Positions 14,772 to 25,404 of a DNA stretch of 64,000 nt are shown in pieces. The stretch is from the NCBI GenBank assembly GCA_965205025.1, contig CBDBFU010000009.1, positions 128,001-192,000 of the forward strand. Reading direction: 5' to 3'. A model generated the notes under the pieces. The model searched no databases. It was not told where the DNA came from and saw only the letters and a program-made list of their open reading frames with translations. A program made the position numbers and the translations under genes. This DNA is from Candidatus Poribacteria bacterium (GTDB lineage Bacteria; Poribacteria; WGA-4E; WGA-3G). Within the stretch, counting starts at the first letter, position 1. Every line of letters begins with the position of its first letter.

Positions 14772-14854
14772 ATATTAGTTTTAGAGTTTTATTAGTGTAA
14801 CAAATTTAGATCTTATTGTCAAGTTTCGTAAGACCACTGAGGAGGAATCTCAGT

Positions 14855-15943
14855 ATGAAACGTATAATACAGCACTTATCAAATCATACCTCGACATGTA
14901 AGCGATTATTATCATACGCTGCTATTATTCTGTTCCTATTTAGTTTAGCACCCGATATTGTAGAAAGTCGGCGTGGGTTCGGTGGACGGAGTTTTGGAAG
15001 AAGTTTCAGTCGTAGTTACAGTCGCAATACAAGTCGTAGTTACAGCCGTAGTTCAAAGACCTATAAAGCCCCTTCACGTAGTACACGTAGTACACGTAGT
15101 ACATATAGTGGAAGTAGAACATCAAAATCTACCTCTACACGTGCAAGTTCGGCAGCCCGTCAGAAACAAACTGCAACAACACGAGGAAAGACGACTAACA
15201 CCGCTTCAACAAGAAACACAACTGCATCTCGTTCACAACAATCCCGAACGACTGCTCAGAATCGGAAGCAGGTACGACAACTTAAAGCTGAAAACCGTAG
15301 TTTGAAACGACAGAATACAAGAGCAAATCGACAAACTGCACAAGCTCGAAGACAACAACGATCAACCATTACTGTGAACAATTTCGGTGGTTATTATCCT
15401 ATGGGTGGATATTCGATGTATTCGCTTGCTGCCTCAATGGCGTTTAATAACCTAATGTTTAATATCTATTTCCATGACTATTACAATCATTCAATTCGAC
15501 ATAGTTATTTATGGCATTATCATCATAGAGATTATGACCGTTCCCACTGGTCTGCTGAGAAGCAAGCGGAATATGAAAAATATAAGGCATATTATGAAAG
15601 CCAAGGGATTGAAGAGAATCCTAATTATGTAGACCCCGGCACAAACAAGGATGAGAACTACATTGCAAGTTATGTTGAGGAGAATCCTGATAAGTTCTAC
15701 GGGGATGATGTTGAGGTAGTCACTGTTGAAGAACTTCCTGATGAAGAGGCATTGAAGGAGGAACTTTTTGCATCTGCTGAAACACCAAATGTAACCTCGA
15801 ATTCTCAACGTGCCCCGCCAGTTACACAAAAGGTAATTGTTCAAAAGAAGACCTCTGGTGGAACATGGTTTCTTCTTATTTTTGGGAGTCTTTTGGTTGT
15901 CGGTGTCATCATGTTAGTATTGTATAACAAAGGTTATTTTTAG
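14855..15943 (+). CDS. exported Ser/Arg/Thr-rich low-complexity protein with C-terminal TM anchor
   Basis: GAGGAGG RBS; signal peptide, RRGFGGRSFGRSFSRSYS tract, Tyr/His-rich middle, C-terminal hydrophobic helix. Confidence 0.75.
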   Translation: MKRIIQHLSNHTSTCKRLLSYAAIILFLFSLAPDIVESRRGFGGRSFGRSFSRSYSRNTSRSYSRSSKTYKAPSRSTRSTRSTYSGSRTSKSTSTRASSAARQKQTATTRGKTTNTASTRNTTASRSQQSRTTAQNRKQVRQLKAENRSLKRQNTRANRQTAQARRQQRSTITVNNFGGYYPMGGYSMYSLAASMAFNNLMFNIYFHDYYNHSIRHSYLWHYHHRDYDRSHWSAEKQAEYEKYKAYYESQGIEENPNYVDPGTNKDENYIASYVEENPDKFYGDDVEVVTVEELPDEEALKEELFASAETPNVTSNSQRAPPVTQKVIVQKKTSGGTWFLLIFGSLLVVGVIMLVLYNKGYF

Positions 15944-16778: not shown

Positions 16779-17843
16779 ATGAAACATCTAAAGATATTTG
16801 TTCTCTCACGCATCCGTATCCTTTTCTTTATCTGTTGTCTGCTCCTGTTTACCGATGCGACAGTTTGTGTTGATGCGAAAATTGTCTATTGTGTAGATGG
16901 TGATATATACGTCAGAAACGATGACGGCACTAATAGACGTAGACTCACAAAAAACACGATGGGGAAAGACCTTTACCCCAACTGGTCGCCTGATGGAAAA
17001 AGAATTGCCTTTATCAGGCTAATGGACAAGAAGAAGTCTCAAACCTCCGGTGAATTGTTCATTATGAACGCAGACGGAAAGGGTCTCCAACGGCTTACCC
17101 ATGACGACATCGGAGACGCATATCCGTCTTGGTCGCCCGATGGGAAAAAAATCGCCTTTCGGAGTCAACGAAGTGGAAGATATGAGGTGCATGTCGTAGA
17201 CCTTGAAACGCTTGCTGTCATGCAGTTAACTGGCATTGAAGGTGAACTGGGTTCTACTGCCCCCGACTGGTCACCCGATGGCACCCAGATCGTTTATGAA
17301 AAGTTTATAAACAATCTGGTCAGGCGACCGGGGTTCGGCGCTGGGTTATCCCATAAAAATATCTATGTGATGTCGGCGGATGGTGAAAATCAGCGTCCCC
17401 TTCTTCCCGATCCGAAGCCTGGTGCGGACACGGTTACCATGCGGTTCTTCCCACGTTGGTCCGCAGACGGACGACGGATCGTATTTGATGATTGCACCTG
17501 GAAAAAAGAATTTACATGTCGGCTCTCCGTGATGTTTATCGGTGGCGAGATACAGGTCATTCAGGATATTTATGACAAACTCGGAGAAAACTTGCTGATC
17601 GGATCCACCTGTTGGATAGAGAATGACAAAGCACTCCTTCTCTCCGTAATTCTAAAGGACAACCCTAATGCGAAAACTTATGATCTCTATAAATATGATT
17701 TTGAGACGGGAAACCTCAAACGGTTGACACTGACGCTGGGGGATGAGGAGTATCCTGATTGGATAGAAGGTGGGTTGTCTGTTTCACCACAGGGGAAGTT
17801 GCCAACACAGTGGGGAGAGAAAAAGCAGACCTTATCCCGGTAG
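16779..17843 (+). CDS. secreted TolB-like PD40 beta-propeller, copy 1
   Basis: Signal peptide, repeated WSPDG/WSADG, C-terminal VSPQGKLPTQWGEKK. Confidence 0.9.
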   Translation: MKHLKIFVLSRIRILFFICCLLLFTDATVCVDAKIVYCVDGDIYVRNDDGTNRRRLTKNTMGKDLYPNWSPDGKRIAFIRLMDKKKSQTSGELFIMNADGKGLQRLTHDDIGDAYPSWSPDGKKIAFRSQRSGRYEVHVVDLETLAVMQLTGIEGELGSTAPDWSPDGTQIVYEKFINNLVRRPGFGAGLSHKNIYVMSADGENQRPLLPDPKPGADTVTMRFFPRWSADGRRIVFDDCTWKKEFTCRLSVMFIGGEIQVIQDIYDKLGENLLIGSTCWIENDKALLLSVILKDNPNAKTYDLYKYDFETGNLKRLTLTLGDEEYPDWIEGGLSVSPQGKLPTQWGEKKQTLSR

Positions 17844-17983
17844 TTTCAAATCCATTTCCGTGCTGCCTTGATATATCCCTTTTTACTGCTGAAACCCGAA
17901 GGTGATTTCGATGTGTTCTTTATTGTATCCCACATGTGGCATATGAAGATTTAAATTGAGTTTCAAATGTTCGTTCATACAAG

Positions 17984-18041
17984 TAATCCTGTCCCTGATC
18001 AGGTTATGCATCGGTGCAGTACCTATTCAGAGACAGGATTA
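17984..18041. terminator. long imperfect hairpin between convergent genes
   Basis: TAATCCTGTCCCTGATCAGGT...ACCTATTCAGAGACAGGATTA. Confidence 0.55.
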
Positions 18042-18116
18042 AGGTGAAACATGAAATAAAATATTAAGTCATGTAAAAGACACTACGTTTTGTTGGTTTG
18101 TGATATGAATATCCAT

Positions 18117-18896
18117 TCATTGAACCGTAACAGTGTAGCTCTCTTGATATACAGTCTGATTTGCTCTATATATATAGGCTGTAATTGTATAATCTCCTGT
18201 ATGCATAGCCCCACTGGGAAATGTGTAACTAAAAGATGCTTCTGTTGATCCACTGTCTTGCGCGTAAGTTGACCCCATATTGGAACCAAGCGTACCTGAA
18301 ACATCACCAGGAGCATTCACATACCAAGTGACCGAACTGTATGGTGCATCTGTGATAAGAACTGCTTCATGGGAATCACCTGGATTCGCTGCATAAGAAC
18401 CATTTTTGGGTTTTAATCCAGGACTGGAATTTGCACCTTCTTTCCAGTCATCATTCTCTCCTGCTTTTTCCGCCTTTTTCTCATCGTAATCCCTATGAAT
18501 AACCGTGCTATCGTTTTTCTTAATTTCAAGAGTAGCGCTGGCTGTCCAACCCATAGCTACTCGGTTTATTTCCGCTGTAGCGAAAGTAAGGTCTCTTTCT
18601 TCACGAACTCCTTCATCAAAAGAATCTTGAGCAGAGACAGGATCTTCACCGCTTGCTGTGAGAAGTATTGTGTAATTCCCTTCTCGGTCCCAGTGTGCAA
18701 AGGTGATACCGTGAACATGAACATCTGTATCATGCCCTCCGAATCCACCAAAAACCTGTCCGTGGACATCTGCATATTCACTTGAGGGTAGGTCATTGTT
18801 ATGAGGATACTCATCATGTGAGTGTCCACTGTATAGGACGATTGTAAAGACTGTGAATAGAGTAAAGAGTGTAAAAGCAAACAATTTTTTAGCCAT
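18117..18896 (-). CDS. secreted protein B1 with C-terminal Ig-like beta-sandwich
   Basis: Signal peptide MAKKLFAF...; C-terminal VTWYV...SFSYTFP...GDYTITAYIY...SYTVTV; AGGAG RBS. Confidence 0.75.
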   Translation of the reverse strand: MAKKLFAFTLFTLFTVFTIVLYSGHSHDEYPHNNDLPSSEYADVHGQVFGGFGGHDTDVHVHGITFAHWDREGNYTILLTASGEDPVSAQDSFDEGVREERDLTFATAEINRVAMGWTASATLEIKKNDSTVIHRDYDEKKAEKAGENDDWKEGANSSPGLKPKNGSYAANPGDSHEAVLITDAPYSSVTWYVNAPGDVSGTLGSNMGSTYAQDSGSTEASFSYTFPSGAMHTGDYTITAYIYRANQTVYQESYTVTVQ

Positions 18897-18911
18897 CTTA
18901 TTTCTCCTATT

Positions 18912-19637
18912 TTATCGTAAGTTGAGATACTGATACGGATCAATACCTGAGGATTCTAAATCTAAAACACGTAGACCTGGTGGTGGATTTTTTAAATCCA
19001 CCCGTGTGAACTGAACGTGAGGACCCGATTTGATATGTGAGGACTCTCCTATTGTTTTTCCATCTTTGTTCTTAATCGGGGAAAATGTGACATAAACTGT
19101 GTCATTGTAGTGAGGATAGACTTTTCCGTTGTGTGTGCTACCCCCACGAAAGTTTCTCTCGCCTTCATTCCATAACTTAATTAACACTCGAGTCAGGAGT
19201 TCGGCCCTGGGAGTATCTTTATTCTTCCATATTACTTTGTATGGATAATCTCCCAGTTCTGGGTAGGGTCCAAAACCGAAAGGTGACACTGGCATATCCT
19301 CCGTATTAACCGTTTCTGTGGTATGTGGTGCTGTATAGGTGGACGTTTTTGTTGATTCTGTCTTATCTATCGTGGACGATGTGTCTTTGATAGGTTCCTT
19401 AGCATTTTGCTCAATACCACCTACATTTGAATCGGTTCCCTGTTCTGATGCTGATGGATCGTCAATCGTTACTGTTCGTTGCTTTTTGTATTGACGGATA
19501 TTCTCATGATGTAGAGCTTCGTCTTTCCTATAAGGTGCGGTCGTGTATTGATAGAAAAGATAGCACAGACCGGCAAATATAATTAGAAAGCCTATCCCCA
19601 TAAGAATCCATCTGTTGGTAAAAAACACATAAAACAT
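18912..19637 (-). CDS. membrane-anchored protein A1 (VSPFGFGPYPE family)
   Basis: N-terminal TM, Thr/Ser linker, VSPFGFGPYPE, ELLTRVLIKLW, GIDPYQYL; paralog of 19910 and 23646. Confidence 0.85.
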   Translation of the reverse strand: MFYVFFTNRWILMGIGFLIIFAGLCYLFYQYTTAPYRKDEALHHENIRQYKKQRTVTIDDPSASEQGTDSNVGGIEQNAKEPIKDTSSTIDKTESTKTSTYTAPHTTETVNTEDMPVSPFGFGPYPELGDYPYKVIWKNKDTPRAELLTRVLIKLWNEGERNFRGGSTHNGKVYPHYNDTVYVTFSPIKNKDGKTIGESSHIKSGPHVQFTRVDLKNPPPGLRVLDLESSGIDPYQYLNLR

Positions 19638-19707
19638 AATTACCTCCTAAAAAAGGGAAGTTATAGAGTTGCTTATATTAAGTTACATAGATTCAGATCA
19701 AAAACCT

Positions 19708-19896
19708 TTAGCTTTTTTTTAAATCTGTATCATGCCTCCCAAATCCACCAAAAACCTGTCCATGGACATCTGCATATTCACTTGAGGGTAATAGGTCATC
19801 TATAGGATAGCTATCATGTGCGTCTCCATTGAACATTGTAATTATAAAAACTGAGGATACCGTTATGAGTGTAAAAGCAAAAAGTTTCTTAGCCAT
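19708..19896 (-). pseudogene. 3'-truncated paralog of secreted protein B1
   Basis: Matches the B1 N-terminus (MAKKLFAFTL...LPSSEYADVHGQVFGGFG.HDTD), then runs directly into the duplicated upstream region of A1. Confidence 0.85.
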
Positions 19897-19909
19897 TTTT
19901 TTCTCCTTA

Positions 19910-20632
19910 TTAACGTATATTCAGGTATTTATATGGATCTATACCTGAAGAATCTAAATCTAAAACGCGTAGACCTGGTGGAGGATTTGTTAAATCCGAT
20001 TTATTATATCTAACATGTGGACCTGAAAGAGTTTCTGTGGTACCTCCTCTTATATTTCCTTCTTTGTCTCTAATAGGTGTAAATTTGTAATACACTACAT
20101 CATTGTAATGAGGATAGACCTTACCGTTGCTAATGCTTCCTCCTATAAAGTTTCTCTCGCCTTCATTCCATAACTTAATTAATACTCGAGTTAGGAGTTC
20201 TAAACTTGGTGTATTCGTAGTCCATATTACTTCATGAGGATAGTCTCCCAGTTCTGGGTAGGGTCCAAAACCGAAAGGTGACACTGGCGTATTCTCTGTA
20301 TCAACCGTTTCTGTGGTCTGTGGTGCTGCATAGGCTTGCGTTTTTGTTGATTCTGTCTTATCTATCGTGGACGATGTGTCTTTGATAGGTTCCTTAGCAT
20401 TTTGCTCAATACCACCTACATTTGAATCGGTTACCTGTTCTGATGCTGATGGATCGCCAATCGTTCCTGTTCGTTGCTTTTTGTATTGATGGATTTTCTC
20501 TTGATGTAGAGCTGCGTCTTTCCTATAAGGTGCGGTCGTGTATTGATAGAAAAGATAACACAGACCGGCAAATATAATTAGAAAGCCTATCCCCATAAGA
20601 ATCCATCTGTTGGTAAAGAACCCATAAAACAT
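19910..20632 (-). CDS. membrane-anchored protein A2 (VSPFGFGPYPE family)
   Basis: N-terminal half nearly identical to A1; C-terminal domain patchily diverged. Confidence 0.85.
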   Translation of the reverse strand: MFYGFFTNRWILMGIGFLIIFAGLCYLFYQYTTAPYRKDAALHQEKIHQYKKQRTGTIGDPSASEQVTDSNVGGIEQNAKEPIKDTSSTIDKTESTKTQAYAAPQTTETVDTENTPVSPFGFGPYPELGDYPHEVIWTTNTPSLELLTRVLIKLWNEGERNFIGGSISNGKVYPHYNDVVYYKFTPIRDKEGNIRGGTTETLSGPHVRYNKSDLTNPPPGLRVLDLDSSGIDPYKYLNIR

Positions 20633-20681
20633 AATTACCTCCTAAAAATGGGAAGTTATAGAGTTGCTTATATTATATTAA

Positions 20682-20766
20682 GTTACATAGATTCAGATCA
20701 AAAACCTTTAGCTTTTTTTTGAAATTGAAAAAAGTACTAAAGAATTTTTGTCTAATCGTATATAAT
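20682..20766. promoter_or_regulatory. back-to-back candidate promoters CTAAAG-N16-TATRTAA
   Basis: Minus: CTAAAG gtttttgatctgaatc TATGTAAC (20711-20682); plus: CTAAAG aatttttgtctaatcg TATATAAT (20737-20766); repeated at ~24430-24517, minus-strand half also at ~19682-19711. Confidence 0.6.
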
Positions 20767-20837
20767 TAAATAGAGACTATATTGTTTGTGTAGAATTATT
20801 TCGTTTTCTCGTAATTCGCCTTGAAGGAGGTAAATAC

Positions 20838-21491
20838 ATGCAACTTCCAAGAGGACCACATAACAGAGGAAAATGTCCGTTTAGTATTGATCCTGCAGAT
20901 GTTATGACTGCGAAAACATCAGTAGACGATTGTGTATCTTGTGTTCAAGGAAAGAGTTCATACTTGAAGGGTTATAAGGAAGATTTTTTTCAATTAGCTT
21001 TTATGACGATTATAGAGGAAACACCGAAGTATGACCCTGATCACCCGAGCGGTGCGAGTTTTACAACGTTCATTAAGAGTCGTGTCTGTACAAGGTTATG
21101 GGGAGAGCGAAGAAAAGTGTTACAACATTTACCTTATCCTCATGAAATGTATTCGCTTACAGATACGGGTGACAATGATAATCCACTTCTTTTTAGTTTG
21201 ATGCATGAGGCGTGTGCCATAGAGAATATAGCAGATACAGTCATTAGACAACTTGAAGTGGAGACACTACGGAGAAATTTACCATACCTCATGGTGAAAC
21301 TCTCAGAAAATGAACGTCGTGTGATTGAACTCAAGTTTTTTGAGGAGTTAAGTGGTGTTGAGATTGCCGAATCCCTTGAAATATCGGAAGGACGCGTTAG
21401 TCAGCTGGCACAGAGAGCTTTGGCAAAGTTAGGGAAAGCGTACCTTTGCATGTTGGATAAAAATATTGGTAACCCCTATGGTAAAAGGTGA
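20838..21491 (+). CDS. alternative sigma-70 factor, FliA/WhiG/SigD-like, copy 1
   Basis: Region 2-like EDFFQLAFMTIIEETPKYDP..GASFTTF; region 4 LSENERRVIELKFFEELSGVEIAESLEISEGRVSQL; AAGGAGG RBS. Confidence 0.9.
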   Translation: MQLPRGPHNRGKCPFSIDPADVMTAKTSVDDCVSCVQGKSSYLKGYKEDFFQLAFMTIIEETPKYDPDHPSGASFTTFIKSRVCTRLWGERRKVLQHLPYPHEMYSLTDTGDNDNPLLFSLMHEACAIENIADTVIRQLEVETLRRNLPYLMVKLSENERRVIELKFFEELSGVEIAESLEISEGRVSQLAQRALAKLGKAYLCMLDKNIGNPYGKR

Positions 21492-21550
21492 GCAAAATTG
21501 GAGGCAATTACTTTCGTTTTAGAAAATAAATTTTAAAATAATATGTCCAG

Positions 21551-22465
21551 ATGAAACATTTAAAGATATTTGTTCTCTCACACATTCGCATCCTTTTTCT
21601 TAGCTGGTGTCTGCTCATTTTAGCGGGGGTAACTGTTGCTAATGCGAAAATTGCCTATTGTGTAGATGGCGACATATACATCAGGAACGATGATGGCACG
21701 AATAGACGCAGGCTCACAAAAACCACACTGTCAGAAGATCGTCATCCCAATTGGTCGCCCGATGGAAAAAAAATCGCCTTTACGAGTGGACGAAGTGGAA
21801 GATATGAGGTGCATGTCGTAGACCTGGAAACGCTTGCTGTCACGCAGTTAACTGGCATTGAAGGGGAGCCGGGTGCAGGTGCTCCCGACTGGTCGCCCGA
21901 TGGCACCCAGATTGTTTATGAAAAGTTTATAAACAATCTTGTCAGGCGACCGGGGTTCGCTGCGGGGTTAACCCATAAAAATATATACGTGATGTCTGCC
22001 GATGGCGAGCAGCAGCCCATCTTCCCTAACCCACAAGCGGGGGCTGATAAGGTGATTATGAGGTTTTTCCCGCGCTGGTCTGCCGATGGACAACGAATTG
22101 TATTTATGGACTGCTCGTGGAAGGGTAAGGACCGCACGTGTTGGATGTCCGTTGCGCGCATCGGCGGTGAAATACAGATTATTCAGGAGGTTCATGACAA
22201 ATTCGGCAAGGATGCGCTGACTGCGGGGGTCTGCTGGATAGAGTATGACCAAGCACTACTTTTCGCACTGAAGCGATTGGATAACCCTAATGCGAAGATT
22301 TATAATCTCTATCGCTATGAGTTTAAGACACGGAGTATCAAACAGTTGACACGAGATATACGGGATGAGAAGTTTCCAGACTGGATAGAAGGCGCGTTGC
22401 CTGTTTCACCACAGGGGAACTTGCCCACACAGTGGGGAGAGAAAAAGCAGGACTTATCTCGGTAG
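21551..22465 (+). CDS. secreted TolB-like PD40 beta-propeller, copy 2
   Basis: Paralog of 16779 lacking one WSPDG repeat; ends VSPQGNLPTQWGEKK. Confidence 0.9.
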   Translation: MKHLKIFVLSHIRILFLSWCLLILAGVTVANAKIAYCVDGDIYIRNDDGTNRRRLTKTTLSEDRHPNWSPDGKKIAFTSGRSGRYEVHVVDLETLAVTQLTGIEGEPGAGAPDWSPDGTQIVYEKFINNLVRRPGFAAGLTHKNIYVMSADGEQQPIFPNPQAGADKVIMRFFPRWSADGQRIVFMDCSWKGKDRTCWMSVARIGGEIQIIQEVHDKFGKDALTAGVCWIEYDQALLFALKRLDNPNAKIYNLYRYEFKTRSIKQLTRDIRDEKFPDWIEGALPVSPQGNLPTQWGEKKQDLSR

Positions 22466-22527
22466 TTCAAAATCTATAAGTGTTTATCACATGAATTGTG
22501 ATTGTACATGGCTTGAAATACCGGACT

Positions 22528-22676
22528 AACTGAATGAAGATTAATTTATTAATTCGGCAATTTTTGAGAAAGATCCAATTCAAGGAATCAACGGTATGAA
22601 TGACATATACCAATCCCCGCCTACCGGGTTTGGGTAAAATAGAATTACCGAAATATTTACTTATTCCTCATAAAGT
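22528..22676. mobile_element. MITE-like repeat, same family as 38054-38216
   Basis: AACTGAATGAAGATTAA..AATTCGGCAAT ... ATTACCGAAAT..TTATTCCTCATAAAGTT imperfect inverted ends; internal AATCAACGGTATGAATG. Confidence 0.7.
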
Positions 22677-22832
22677 TTGTGCTACATTAAAGAGATTTTA
22701 TAAATCGGACTCTAATTACCAGAAATGGTATAAGATCACAATGTGTGTTGTCTGTGAATATAGTTTGGGTGTGTAAAGTAGGAGGGATTCCGATTCCCGA
22801 CGCATCCATCCTTCCCTCTTCTCTTCCTCTTC

Positions 22833-22876
22833 TGTAGGAGCGACCTCCTGGTCGCGACCAGGAGGTCGCTCCTACA
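22833..22876. repeat. perfect 44-bp GTAG-type REP palindrome
   Basis: TGTAGGAGCGACCTCCTGGTCG|CGACCAGGAGGTCGCTCCTACA; related GTAGGAGGGATTCCGATTCC just upstream, with inverted copies near 29290 and 39750. Confidence 0.8.
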
Positions 22877-23027
22877 AGTAATGTGTCTAATTAAATTTAA
22901 AGTTTACTATAAAAATCTGAGTTATCAAACTCACGTCAAAGTACAATAATAAAGGTAGATACCCAAAGAATACCTGCCTCAAAACTCTACTTGTCCGGAT
23001 CATGAAGATTCATACCACCAAGGTATG

Positions 23028-23639
23028 CTACTCGTCATACCACCAAGGTACGCTACTCGAAGAGACATGTGTCATGTGCAAAGGATCCGGATTTTGGGAA
23101 CTGAAAGGTGCTCCAGATATAGTCGCCCATGCCTGGCATTGATCTATAGATATGTTAACATCATAGGGAACTGATGTAGTTACCACACCTCTCGCATCTA
23201 TAGGGTCTGGCAGCATTTGACTTATCGTCCCTTCATAATCCCTGGTTGTCACTCCAGACCCTGGAACTATCCTTGGAACCACCATCACTGTGTTTGCTGG
23301 CGCATAAGGAAACACTACCTCGTGATAGTAATGCCCCTTAAAAGCCGGATTCGTGTTTTTGACACGGGTGCGAGCCATCCAGTGATGTTGTTTATCCTTA
23401 TCTTTGTTTGGTCCTATATTAATCTCGTCTGCATACTGGCTAACCGCCGTACGGGACCGAGTCTCAAGGGGACCATCAACATCTTTTGCATTGCGTCCCC
23501 TATACGTTCTGTCCGAATCTGTTTTTTTTCCAGTATCTCTATGAAAAACACGATTGTTATGTGCTAGGTGTTCCGAAACACTTACGAGTGTTGAAGTACA
23601 CAATAGAGAGCATGTGAGAAAAACAAATACTTTTTTCAT
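23028..23639 (-). CDS. secreted protein B3, no visible similarity to B1
   Basis: Signal peptide MKKVFVFLTCSLL...; same position downstream of an A gene as B1. Confidence 0.7.
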   Translation of the reverse strand: MKKVFVFLTCSLLCTSTLVSVSEHLAHNNRVFHRDTGKKTDSDRTYRGRNAKDVDGPLETRSRTAVSQYADEINIGPNKDKDKQHHWMARTRVKNTNPAFKGHYYHEVVFPYAPANTVMVVPRIVPGSGVTTRDYEGTISQMLPDPIDARGVVTTSVPYDVNISIDQCQAWATISGAPFSSQNPDPLHMTHVSSSSVPWWYDE

Positions 23640-23645
23640 AATCTA

Positions 23646-24395
23646 TTACCTCCTCGGTAATTCTAAAAATTGATACGGGTCAATACCCGCTGTATCATAG
23701 TCCACAGCTGTGAGTCCTGCGGGAAGATCGTCTAATGTAAAACCTTGGTCCTCCCTCTCAAGTGCTGCTTCTAATTCCTCTGGCGTTTCCGCATCCCAAA
23801 ACGCATCGAAAACACCTAAATCATCATCTGGATGTGAGAGAACAACACCGGCAATTCTATCGCCTGATCGTGTTACATAGGCAACACCCCGAATCACGGG
23901 GTAAATGAGTCCACCGCGTCCATAGGTTACACCTTCAGCGTCTATTCCCTGCGTCCATAGTTTTATTCTAACACGGGTCAATAATTCGAAAGTCGGATAA
24001 TCTTTATCCCAATGTACAGGATATGGATAATCTTCGGGCACCTCTGGGTAAGGCCCGAACCCGAATGGAGACACTGACGTATCCTCCGTATCAACCGTTT
24101 CTGTGGTATGTGGTGCTGCCTTATCTATCGTGGACGATGTGTCTTTGATAGGTTTCTTTGCATTTTGCTCAATACCACCTACATTTGAATCGGTTACCTG
24201 TTCTGATGCTGATGGATCGCCAATCGTTACTGTTCGTTGCTTTTTGTATTGACGGATTTTCTCATCATGTAAAGCTGCCTCTTCCCTATAAGGTGCGGTC
24301 GTGTATTGATAGAAAAGATAACACAGACCGGCAAATATAATTAGAAAGCCTATCCCCATAAGAATCCATCTGTTGGTAAAGAACACATAAAACAT
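23646..24395 (-). CDS. membrane-anchored protein A3 (VSPFGFGPYPE family)
   Basis: Same N-terminal half as A1/A2; distinct C-terminal domain keeping ELLTRV.IKLW and GIDPYQFL. Confidence 0.85.
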   Translation of the reverse strand: MFYVFFTNRWILMGIGFLIIFAGLCYLFYQYTTAPYREEAALHDEKIRQYKKQRTVTIGDPSASEQVTDSNVGGIEQNAKKPIKDTSSTIDKAAPHTTETVDTEDTSVSPFGFGPYPEVPEDYPYPVHWDKDYPTFELLTRVRIKLWTQGIDAEGVTYGRGGLIYPVIRGVAYVTRSGDRIAGVVLSHPDDDLGVFDAFWDAETPEELEAALEREDQGFTLDDLPAGLTAVDYDTAGIDPYQFLELPRR

Positions 24396-24591
24396 AATTA
24401 CCTCCTAAGAATAGGGAGTTATCTTATATTAAGTTACATAGATTCAGACCAAAAACCTTTAGCTTTTTTTTAAAATTGAAAAAAGTACTAAAGAATTTTT
24501 GTCTAATCGTATATAATTAAATAGAGACTATATTGTTTGTGTAGAATTATTTCGTCGTTTTCTCGCAATTCGCCTTGAAGGAGGTATATAC

Positions 24592-25245
24592 ATGCAACTT
24601 CCAAGAGGACCACATAACAGAGGAAAATGTCCGTTTAGTATTGATCCTGCAGATGTTATGACTGCGAAAGCATCAGTAGACTATTGTGTATCTTGTGTTC
24701 AAGGAAAGAGTTCATACTTGAAGGGTTATAACGAAGATTTTTTTCAATTAGCTTTTATGACGATTATAGAGGAAACGCCGAAGTATGACCCTGATCACCC
24801 GAGCGGTGCAAGTTTTACAACGTTCATTAAGAGTCGTGTTTGTACAAGGTTGTGGGGAGAGCGAAGAAAAGTGTTACAACATTTACCATATCCTCATGAA
24901 ACGTATTCACTAACAGATACGGATGACAGTGATAATCCACTTCTTATTAATTTGATGCATGAGGCGTGTGCCGTAGAGAATATAGCAGATACAGTCATTA
25001 GACAACTTGAAGTGGAGACACTACGGAGAAATTTACCACACCTAATGGTGAAACTCTCAGAAAATGAACGTCGTGTGATTGAACTCAAGTTTTTTGAGGA
25101 GTTAAGTGGCGTTGAGATTGCCGAATCCCTTGAAATATCGGAAGGACGCTTTAGTCAGTTGGCACAGAAAGCTTTGGCAAAGTTAGGGAAAGCGTACCTT
25201 CGCATGTTGGATAAAAATATTGGTAACCCTTATGGTGAAAGTTAA
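24592..25245 (+). CDS. alternative sigma-70 factor, FliA/WhiG/SigD-like, copy 2
   Basis: Near-identical to 20838-21491, both 217 aa; GRFSQL instead of GRVSQL. Confidence 0.9.
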   Translation: MQLPRGPHNRGKCPFSIDPADVMTAKASVDYCVSCVQGKSSYLKGYNEDFFQLAFMTIIEETPKYDPDHPSGASFTTFIKSRVCTRLWGERRKVLQHLPYPHETYSLTDTDDSDNPLLINLMHEACAVENIADTVIRQLEVETLRRNLPHLMVKLSENERRVIELKFFEELSGVEIAESLEISEGRFSQLAQKALAKLGKAYLRMLDKNIGNPYGES

Positions 25246-25250
25246 TTATT

Positions 25251-25404
25251 CAGGACTTACGCAACTTAATCAGAAAAAGGTAAAATTTGACTTAAAAAGC
25301 CGTCATTTCAGTGTTTTAACCCCCTAAAGAATCAACGGTATGAATGCCTTAGGCATTCCCCGCCCCTTATCAGGGGGACTTTAAGATGAAATGCGTAAGT
25401 CCTG
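25251..25404. mobile_element. MITE with perfect 13-bp terminal inverted repeats
   Basis: CAGGACTTACGCA ... TGCGTAAGTCCTG; internal GAATGCCTTAGGCATTC and CCCCTTATCAGGGG hairpins. Confidence 0.8.

Follow-up and report, generated by a model that had tools for sequence, protein, structure and literature searches.

A stretch of 64,000 nucleotides (nt) from a Candidatus Poribacteria genome, called the window below, carries between 16.8 and 25.2 kb an array in which sigma-factor genes stand among genes for exported proteins. The window belongs to contig C9 of a genome of 5.66 Mb (33 contigs, 95.5% complete), and the named homologues of its proteins come from Candidatus Poribacteria. The list of open reading frames (ORFs) gives the array two sigma genes (S1 and S2), two PD40 propellers (P1 and P2), three genes for membrane-anchored proteins (A1 to A3), two genes for secreted proteins that follow A genes (B1 and B3) and a B stub. 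A first-pass annotation had taken the array for a two-fold unit in which a dedicated sigma factor switches on exchangeable, cognate pairs of surface proteins. The locus thus raises the question of what A and B do together, and whether the sigma factor belongs to them.

The A-B pair is an apparently undescribed, phylum-specific pair of exported proteins, a multi-copy family that runs mostly without S. The link between the sigma factor and A-B is real and well above chance, but optional. On balance we think it probable that S activates its own gene together with the cassette beside it and that A tethers its cognate B, and that the STAS (anti-anti-sigma) genes near S point to a partner-switching input. 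What the first-pass annotation had observed is confirmed, and the idea of cognate pairs has stood; the sigma factor as the defining partner, and the likening to toxin loci, have not. Gene content, repeats, motif positions and family distributions were read directly.

The A-B pair across Poribacteria

Genes of the A family are numerous. In this genome the A profile picks out 19 ORFs spread over ten contigs: about 12 genes of full length and, beyond these, broken copies. Of 663 candidates 543 are relatives of A1, and none of the 120 matches listed has a Pfam domain. Searching 1.84 billion proteins with a profile of the C-terminal domain yields 552 representatives at E <= 0.001; the 150 matches listed all measure 118-287 amino acids (aa) and carry the domain at their C-terminus. 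In species-representative genomes a scan confirmed 309 stretches; 74 A loci were kept from these, and those that are named are Poribacteria. Of 81 related genomes 70 carry A, with between 1 and 31 matches in each, and they fall in 10 of 14 genera.

An A gene is usually followed by a second gene for an exported protein. A same-strand ORF begins at most 200 nt downstream of 88 of the 102 full-length A genes in the 74 loci, and 14 have no downstream ORF. By a crude rule, 79 of the 88 have a signal-peptide-like start; two of the 88 are another A gene. The downstream proteins are diverse, with 33 single-linkage clusters among 76 mature B proteins. A1-A3, B1 and B3 have no match in Pfam or NCBIfam, A and B have no described relatives in the family libraries searched, and no description of the A-B pair or the S family was found in the part of the literature searched, on Poribacteria and on sigma-28/Rsb systems. 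In relative G036 (locus L107, G036:C9:130000-146000) S is followed by four A-B cassettes in the same direction, with a lone A closing the array; a STAS gene and a frameshifted P-like propeller lie upstream, on the opposite strand.

The topology of A and its binding to B were computed. A1 (18912..19637, minus strand) consists of an N-in membrane anchor, a disordered linker of about 50 aa and a 130-aa C-terminal domain predicted to bind B. The same plan holds for the family: an N-terminal membrane helix, a disordered linker and a C-terminal domain of about 130 aa with the motifs SPxGFGPYP and GIDPYxFL. In the A1 model the membrane helix extends into a long helix (residues 9-58), followed by a linker rich in Thr, Ser, Asp and Glu (59-109) and the compact C-domain. 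Mean net charge over 72 A sequences is +2.2 before the membrane helix and -0.7 after it, which places the N-terminus inside and the C-terminus outside, and indicates that A is probably a type-II membrane-anchored protein. Searches with A models for solved relatives of A itself found none. With the whole A1 model Foldseek returned nothing at E <= 0.001, and matches to the long N-terminal helix took up the wide list of VIA-align (best Z 5.0); the C-domain was therefore modelled alone. From 93 sequences it gives one helix packed on an antiparallel sheet (pLDDT 94.7, pTM 0.86). Against the PDB Foldseek again returned nothing at E <= 0.001 (best E = 0.25, LOV1, TM 0.17), the best VIA-align wide score, all against representatives, was Z = 2.8, and the ESM Atlas gave no usable match.

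A and B vary together, as the first-pass annotation had proposed from the copies in the window. Over 76 A-B pairs, B proteins are related in 15 of 17 pairings in which the A C-domains are at least 80% identical, and in 21 of 1498 pairings in which they are less than 35% identical. By itself, covariation tells us that A and B evolve together as one unit; it does not establish contact between the proteins. Contact is predicted for A1 and B1: three runs with the A1 C-domain and mature B1 give ipSAE 0.89, and none of three controls exceeds 0.02; the partner pLDDT is 79, and contacts agree to at least 94% between runs. When the tool was calibrated, 116 of 157 solved complexes attained this mark, as did 2 of 215 mismatched pairs; the calibration applies only roughly to A1-B1, for which our own alignments were supplied. 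Within A, variability is highest at the predicted interface. Entropy averages 2.99 bits over its 35 positions and 1.72 bits over the remaining 91 (Mann-Whitney p = 5e-9). Of the 35, A2 departs from A1 at 18 and A3 at 29; outside the interface A1 and A2 differ at 20 of 95 positions. These models point to A as a conserved scaffold carrying a private, hypervariable binding face for its own B. The scaffold would present this face to the secreted partner, and we infer that each cassette would thereby hold one particular B at the cell envelope, as an anchor holds its cargo.

B1 (18117..18896, minus strand; 259 aa), the secreted partner of A1, has an N-terminal His-rich domain and a C-terminal module that looks Ig-like. 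It has 19 homologues among 5.8 billion clusters, the named ones being Poribacteria. The B1 family has an invariant His (H60) in an HVHG motif, a second conserved motif, YADVHG, and a conserved C-terminal module, which in some relatives is followed by an fn3 domain; this may be a metal site. Fifteen other B proteins match nothing or fn3 only (fn3 in 4 of the 15). B3 (23028..23639, minus strand; 203 aa), the secreted partner of A3, has weak relatives that follow other A genes. It had been described as unrelated to B1, and this is borne out beyond the signal peptide, which alone aligns in hhalign (probability 10%, 25 columns). Starting from B3, an iterative HMM search did arrive at B1 by round 3; this was rejected as drift, the hhalign alignment being confined to the signal peptide.

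A different role for the same binding would make the B proteins secreted effectors or toxins and the A proteins their membrane-anchored, cognate immunity or holding proteins, with arrays and lone A genes as immunity collections. The first-pass annotation had likened the locus to polymorphic toxin and antigenic-variation loci. Like toxin-immunity arrays, A-B comes as multi-copy two-gene cassettes in tandem, with specific predicted binding through a hypervariable A interface and with diverse B proteins (the 33 clusters among 76). Copies of A without B also occur: the 14 of 102 above, A2 with its stub, a case in the closest relative, G025, and the lone A that ends the G036 array. The proteins themselves speak against it. 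Pfam and NCBIfam contain no toxin, trafficking or immunity match for A1-A3, B1 or B3, and no toxin, immunity or antigenic-variation feature was detected there or in the 15 other B proteins, 4 of which carry only fn3 modules. A keeps one scaffold and anchor, an architecture common to the phylum (all 150 listed among the 552 matches, 118-287 aa), and B proteins have Sec-type signals. In the operon the binder gene stands before the putative toxin gene, and secretion-system genes were not seen beside the cassettes in the loci inspected. A toxin-immunity role is in our judgement rather unlikely, and A as anchor of its own B remains the reading we prefer.

In other genomes many A genes (L013, L018, L031, L007, L069, L028, L033, L045 and others) carry a hairpin shortly before the ribosome-binding site, at a distance of 10-20 nt, and so does one A gene of this genome (G000 C14:124550-124676). 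The sequence of the hairpin varies between A subfamilies while the pairing is kept, and A1-A3 of the window lack it. Leaders from -60 to -13 have a median folding energy of -9.0 kcal/mol for 79 A genes and -5.4 kcal/mol for 175 controls from the same loci (p = 2e-7, for sequences that are not independent). RNAalifold found no consensus structure in a MAFFT alignment of 28 A leaders; the hairpins came from folding leaders singly. The hairpin could be a cis-regulatory or stabilising leader.

The sigma factor S, its promoter motif and its neighbours

S1 (20838..21491, plus strand) and S2 (24592..25245, plus strand), the second copy, encode a two-domain factor of the sigma-70 family. Both score above the TIGR02937 cut-off for the superfamily (69.2 and 66.3 bits against 42.9, over residues 46-200). 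Region 4 is clear (Pfam E = 4.9e-14), and the best PDB match of S is WhiG (7lq4, E = 2.4e-7), in region 4 only. S had been called a FliA/WhiG-like sigma, and this holds for region 4. It does not hold for the protein as a whole, which scores 62.7 bits on the FliA/WhiG model TIGR02479 against a cut-off of 189.6, with alignment limited to model positions 150-220, that is, region 4. Region 2 is barely detectable (Pfam 13.3 bits against 24). The scores on Pfam PF07638, Sigma70_ECF, are 19.0 and 18.3 bits against 21.1. By curated models S is a member of neither the FliA/WhiG nor the ECF family. S is found in 37 of the 81 related genomes and 3 of the 14 genera, with five copies in this genome, one of them truncated.

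The first 45 residues of S form a Cys-rich extension (20838-20975 and 24592-24729). Among 31 aligned S proteins C13, P14, F15, C32 and C84 are invariant, C35 is kept in 30 and C126 in 28. This conservation suggests a metal- or redox-sensing part built into the sigma factor.

The evidence that ties S to its neighbours is a shared promoter-like element. Upstream of S genes it consists of an A-tract, CTAAAG, 16 nt and TATATAA or a close variant. In the divergent intergenic DNA the same element faces both ways, and it faces A1, A2 and A3, where the -10 is TATGTAA. Towards S1 (20728..20763, plus strand) it reads A-tract, CTAAAG, N16, TATAT, a strict match. Towards A1 (19685..19720, minus strand, within repeat D9) it reads A-tract, CTAAAG, N16, TATGT; this site and those facing A2 (20685..20720, minus strand), A3 (24436..24471, minus strand) and S2 (24479..24514, plus strand) were found by both the strict scan and a -35-only pattern. 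An alternative sigma gene preceded by its own motif is the usual signature of autoregulation. The E. coli sigma-28 consensus is TAAAGTTT-n11-GCCGATAA (PMC2859248). The -35 here matches it, CTAAAG being conserved where sigma-28 has TAAAG; in the place of the CGATAA-type -10 of sigma-28 stands CG(T)ATATAA or TATGTAA at 16 nt.

The element is rare in the genome and its sites are not scattered. The strict pattern (A-tract, CTAAA[GC], N16, TAT[AG]T) was widened after the A sites had been seen; it has 12 matches, against 0-1 in each of five shuffled genomes. All 12 lie upstream of S (four: C1, two on C9, C12), A1-A3 (three), STAS genes (three: C7, C12, C15) or operons of a secreted protein X and a propeller (two: C13, C14). 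The -35-only pattern has 15 matches, against 2-3 in each of five shuffles, and 12 of the 15 carry TAT(A/G)T at exactly 16 nt. Among 29 S loci of relatives a looser pattern has 37 matches, of which 21 precede S, 6 STAS, 3 A, 2 a propeller and 4 other secreted genes, and 1 has no gene after it. The motif precedes S in 21 of these 29 loci.

One sigma-28-like motif facing both ways means that an S-family sigma probably drives itself and the adjacent cassettes. From the motif positions we infer that S reads the A-tract/CTAAAG-N16-TAT(A/G)T element; an autoregulated sigma factor with a small regulon of adjacent operons would be the simplest reading. S would then transcribe its own gene and the operon back to back with it from these promoters, the latter being A-B cassettes in the window. 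To this extent the dedicated sigma switch of the first-pass annotation survives, but not as a general partner of A-B. None of the 74 A loci in other Poribacteria genomes holds an S-family gene within 6 kb, which makes the link to the sigma factor optional, and A occurs in 10 of 14 genera against 3 of 14 for S. In one genus (g10) A is present in ten of ten genomes and S in none of the ten.

Seen from S, the link is above chance. In this genome an A gene or fragment lies within 5 kb of four of the five S genes. Within the 1.5-kb flanks of the 29 S loci of relatives, A is adjacent in three (divergent in L077 and L078, co-directional in L085), against about 1% per locus expected by our own estimate from roughly 13 copies in 5.5 Mb. 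In G004 S is divergent from A-B; in G024 it is divergent from a STAS gene, a membrane protein and a secreted protein. The commoner neighbours of S are STAS genes and X-plus-propeller operons: STAS is adjacent in 7 of the 29 loci, and so is a propeller, often after secreted protein X. S would have captured a few A-B cassettes along with STAS and X-propeller operons. ECF sigma factors fused to BNR propellers were considered as partners of A and rejected, as their presence in 10 of 74 A loci is about what chance gives with 72 ECF-like genes in the genome. These 72 ORFs include about 40 of 850-1380 aa (for example C10:19002-22127, C16:72403-75372, C22:20059-23118 and C32:52325-55186); in Pfam, four such long proteins from relatives' A loci are ECF sigma factors fused to BNR/sortilin-type propellers.

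The STAS genes of L054 and L108 are clear members of the anti-anti-sigma family (57-58.5 bits against a Pfam cut-off of 22.6). In relatives a STAS gene is the neighbour of S in L079-L084 and L098, and in this genome at C12; neither of the two units in the window contains one. The place of STAS genes in the regulon would give S a partner-switching input. An RsbW-type kinase and a PP2C phosphatase were not seen in the loci inspected, and no genome-wide search was made for them. The membrane-bound A protein might itself be the anti-sigma factor of S, in the place that RsbW has in STAS-antisigma-sigma modules, and operons of STAS then A do lie divergent from or near S-type promoters at C12, at C15 and in L054. 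We regard this as extremely unlikely: about nine residues precede the membrane helix of A, the charge balance puts its C-domain outside the cell, A is far more widespread and numerous than S, and A is predicted to bind a secreted B. A 248-aa membrane protein after STAS in L108 was also tried as an A homologue and rejected (hhalign probability 4%).

Several points weigh against the reading in which S switches on cassettes whose A tethers B. On the side of the pair, plain operon co-inheritance gives the same A/B covariation, the complex was predicted from our own unpaired alignments for one cognate pair (A1-B1) and no non-cognate pair, the signal peptides of B were judged from crude hydrophobicity rules alone, and anchor and cargo would be one of several roles that A-B binding allows. 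On the side of the sigma factor stand the faint region 2 of S and its score below the FliA/WhiG cut-off, the -10 of the A promoters (TATGTAA, against TATATAA for S, in a pattern widened after they were seen), the count of just nine loose-pattern matches in the 833 kb of the 74 A loci, and the lack of S from all of those loci. A sigma-70-like TTGATC-N18-TATAAT (match score 10/12) overlaps the motif facing A2, and a group-3-like sigma in a 237-aa frame at C26:171311-171967 matches the whole FliA model with 100 bits. The motif could be read by another sigma factor or be a regulator's operator.

In an alternative account the sigma gene lies next to A by accident, A-B is under the housekeeping sigma, and the A-tract/CTAAAG element is the site of another regulator or sigma factor. 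Most A genes lacking both S and the motif, the sigma-70-like promoter at A2, the second group-3-like sigma in the genome and the presence of A in genera where S was not found, such as g10, fit that account. It has more difficulty with the strict motif, whose 12 matches all fall around S-family genes and their neighbours, with its place before S in 21 of 29 relatives, with a -35 that matches what a FliA-type region 4 reads, and with A within 1.5 kb of S in 3 of 29 loci against the 1% or so that we estimate for chance. We consider an incidental sigma gene unlikely, and return to S as the probable switch of the cassettes beside it.

How the array arose

Every gene named in the first-pass annotation is present as an ORF, and the array does contain its unit twice; the unit itself is drawn differently here. 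P2 (21551..22465, plus strand; 304 aa), an exported PD40 propeller, begins 59 nt after S1 on the same strand and is probably co-transcribed with it, as nothing like a terminator lies in the gap; the natural unit is therefore [<-B <-A | S-> P->], in which the propeller trails the sigma gene rather than leading the cassette. P1 (16779..17843, plus strand; 354 aa), also an exported PD40 beta-propeller, has no S-type motif that we could find upstream. Both propellers are well above the PD40 cut-off of Pfam (90 and 66.4 bits against 20.9). Their identification as TolB was rejected, the TIGR02800 equivalog scores being 107.6 and 70.2 bits against a cut-off of 343.

Two repeated tracts stand out. An exact 1000-nt tandem duplication (18723..20722, in the copies 18723-19722 and 19723-20722) comprises a B 5' end, an A gene and a promoter, and is the origin of A1, A2 and the B stub. 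It is marked by repeats D1, D4, D9, D10, D11 and D13 with a spacing of 995-1000 nt, D10 and D13 having a period of 1000 nt. The stub (19708..19896, minus strand; 62 aa) is the 5' end of a B1-like gene cut off by this duplication; A2 (19910..20632, minus strand), a paralogue of A1, has no full partner. The second is a tract of high identity: 20367..21491 is 94-98% identical to about 24130-25245 (repeats D2 and D5), and outside it identity falls to 23-65% in a sliding DNA comparison. The tract covers the first 88 or so codons of A, the intergenic DNA with both promoters and the whole sigma gene. The near-identity of sigma genes, intergenic DNA and A 5' parts had been noted from the start; the share of A is its 5' third, not half. 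This tract gives A its look of a constant N-terminus and a variable C-terminus, a pattern that is due to a gene-conversion or duplication tract also covering the sigma gene, and not to a toxin-type architecture.

Protein identities by tblastn are 93.5% over 216 aa for S1 and S2, 78.8% for A1 and A2, 58.7% for A1 and A3 (23646..24395, minus strand, with a divergent C-domain), 59-62% for P1 and P2, and 69.5% over 59 aa for B1 and the B fragment; B3 has no second copy that tblastn finds in the genome. In the closest relative, G025, flanking proteins are 79-98% identical, and a single sigma gene stands at the syntenic site, with an X-propeller-A operon divergent from it. Rearrangement at this locus is clearly rapid. 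The best explanation is that a small regulatory module, belonging to one Poribacteria genus, was recently duplicated here and has been homogenised in part.

An array of near-identical units might also come from the assembler, which could string together strain variants of one cassette. No read contig spans the repeats, and the single sigma gene at the syntenic site of the closest relative agrees with such an artefact. Some parts of the stretch have no contig cover in some runs. Read contigs from two runs of one study, on the other hand, show no differences at 17174-19178, 19691-20176, 21220-21819, 21796-22563 and 22852-24149, and these include the copy-specific junctions. The depth of copy-specific junction pieces is even in run X1 (4.5-6.6), although uneven in run X2 (9.8-75). 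The copies differ in their flanking genes and not in alleles alone, and the four-cassette array of G036 shows that such arrays occur in a relative. With junctions covered without differences, yet repeats unspanned, a misassembly is very unlikely.

Two regions of unusual read depth lie next to the second unit. At 22520-23100 and 25139-25400 depth rises from 5-70 nearby to hundreds and up to about 20,000, with many cross-joints; these are high-copy repeat elements flanking the B3-A3-S2 unit, and a 26-nt direct repeat lies at 22582 and 25326. They may have mediated the rearrangement. A joint 22913>25305 that would mark a deletion variant was rejected: it has a side of 24 letters, sits in the high-copy repeats and is read as repeat cross-joining.

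The C-termini of P1 (17784-17843) and P2 (22406-22465) are variants of a Poribacteria-wide tag, V-x-P-x-G-K-L-x-T-x-W-G-x-x-K; the tail of P1 matches the tag regex, and a loose form of it finds 65 ORFs with such a C-terminal tail in the genome. Just upstream of the array (14816-15943) is a gene for a 375-aa protein with a long low-complexity region rich in Ser, Arg and Thr and a C-terminal membrane helix, 89.7% identical in G025. S2 is followed by an EamA transporter gene (Pfam) on the opposite strand.

Relation to known systems and meaning

Several described systems resemble parts of the locus. Sigma-28 is known outside flagellar regulation from Streptomyces WhiG and Chlamydia sigma-28. Non-flagellar relatives of sigma-28 are reported in PMC12871210 and PMC10597470. 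S is like them in its region 4, which is nearest WhiG/FliA, in a TAAAG -35 with a spacing similar to TAAAGTTT-n11-GCCGATAA, and in its apparently non-flagellar use: no FliA above cut-off, no FHIPEP (FlhA-type export gate) and no flagellin gene was found in this 95.5%-complete genome. It is unlike them in falling short of TIGR02479, with region 4 alone aligned and no region 3 detected, in its Cys-rich extension, in the TATATAA-like -10 and in a regulon of a handful of adjacent operons for exported proteins.

ECF sigma factors with co-transcribed envelope genes share with S the two-domain build of about 217 aa, a putatively autoregulated promoter and exported or membrane proteins as neighbours. 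S, however, is below the Sigma70_ECF cut-off, its promoter is not of the GGAAC/CGT type, and no anti-sigma domain protein is adjacent; the 72 ECF-like genes of this genome, many fused to BNR propellers, are a family separate from S. Partner switching, as in RsbV/RsbW/sigma-B and the Rsb proteins of Chlamydia, is echoed by the STAS-only gene next to S, at C12 and in 7 of the 29 loci of relatives, and by the S-type promoters of the STAS genes at C7, C12 and C15. It differs in the kinase and phosphatase, which were unseen in the loci inspected and for which the genome at large was not searched, and in the units of the window, which have no STAS gene.

The pair itself can be compared with anchor-cargo display of the cohesin-dockerin kind, where a membrane-tethered module on a long linker binds a secreted partner. 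A-B differs from it in that each A seems to have its own partner, with no shared docking tag, and no relation in sequence or fold was found. The regulation proposed for S is of a known kind, an autoregulated alternative sigma factor with FliA-like promoter recognition and STAS input; the A-B pair attached to it is undescribed in the sources searched.

Poribacteria are uncultured sponge symbionts whose molecular interaction with the host is largely unknown. The present analysis turns a set of hypothetical proteins into cassettes of two genes, spread through the phylum, whose products are predicted to pair specifically through a hypervariable face on a domain for which no neighbour was found in the PDB. 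It also offers a compact putative sigma regulon with a clear motif that can be tested in a heterologous host without culturing, and a case in which a FliA-like region 4 and promoter would serve exported proteins where no flagellar genes were found in the genome. A wider picture, which we put forward tentatively and think unlikely to hold in full, is a phylum-specific display system of dozens of interchangeable cassettes, each with a membrane tether that has a private, hypervariable docking face and with its own secreted cargo; among them, in one genus, a Cys-rich, sigma-28-like sigma factor with STAS input would select, and recombination would shuffle which of them come under its control. If it is true, recombination in the conserved 5' part of A and the promoter would generate strain-specific surfaces toward the sponge host or neighbouring microbes. 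Should either the anchor-cargo or the cognate-pair idea be true, the cassettes would serve well to mark how cell surfaces differ between strains in sponge microbiomes.

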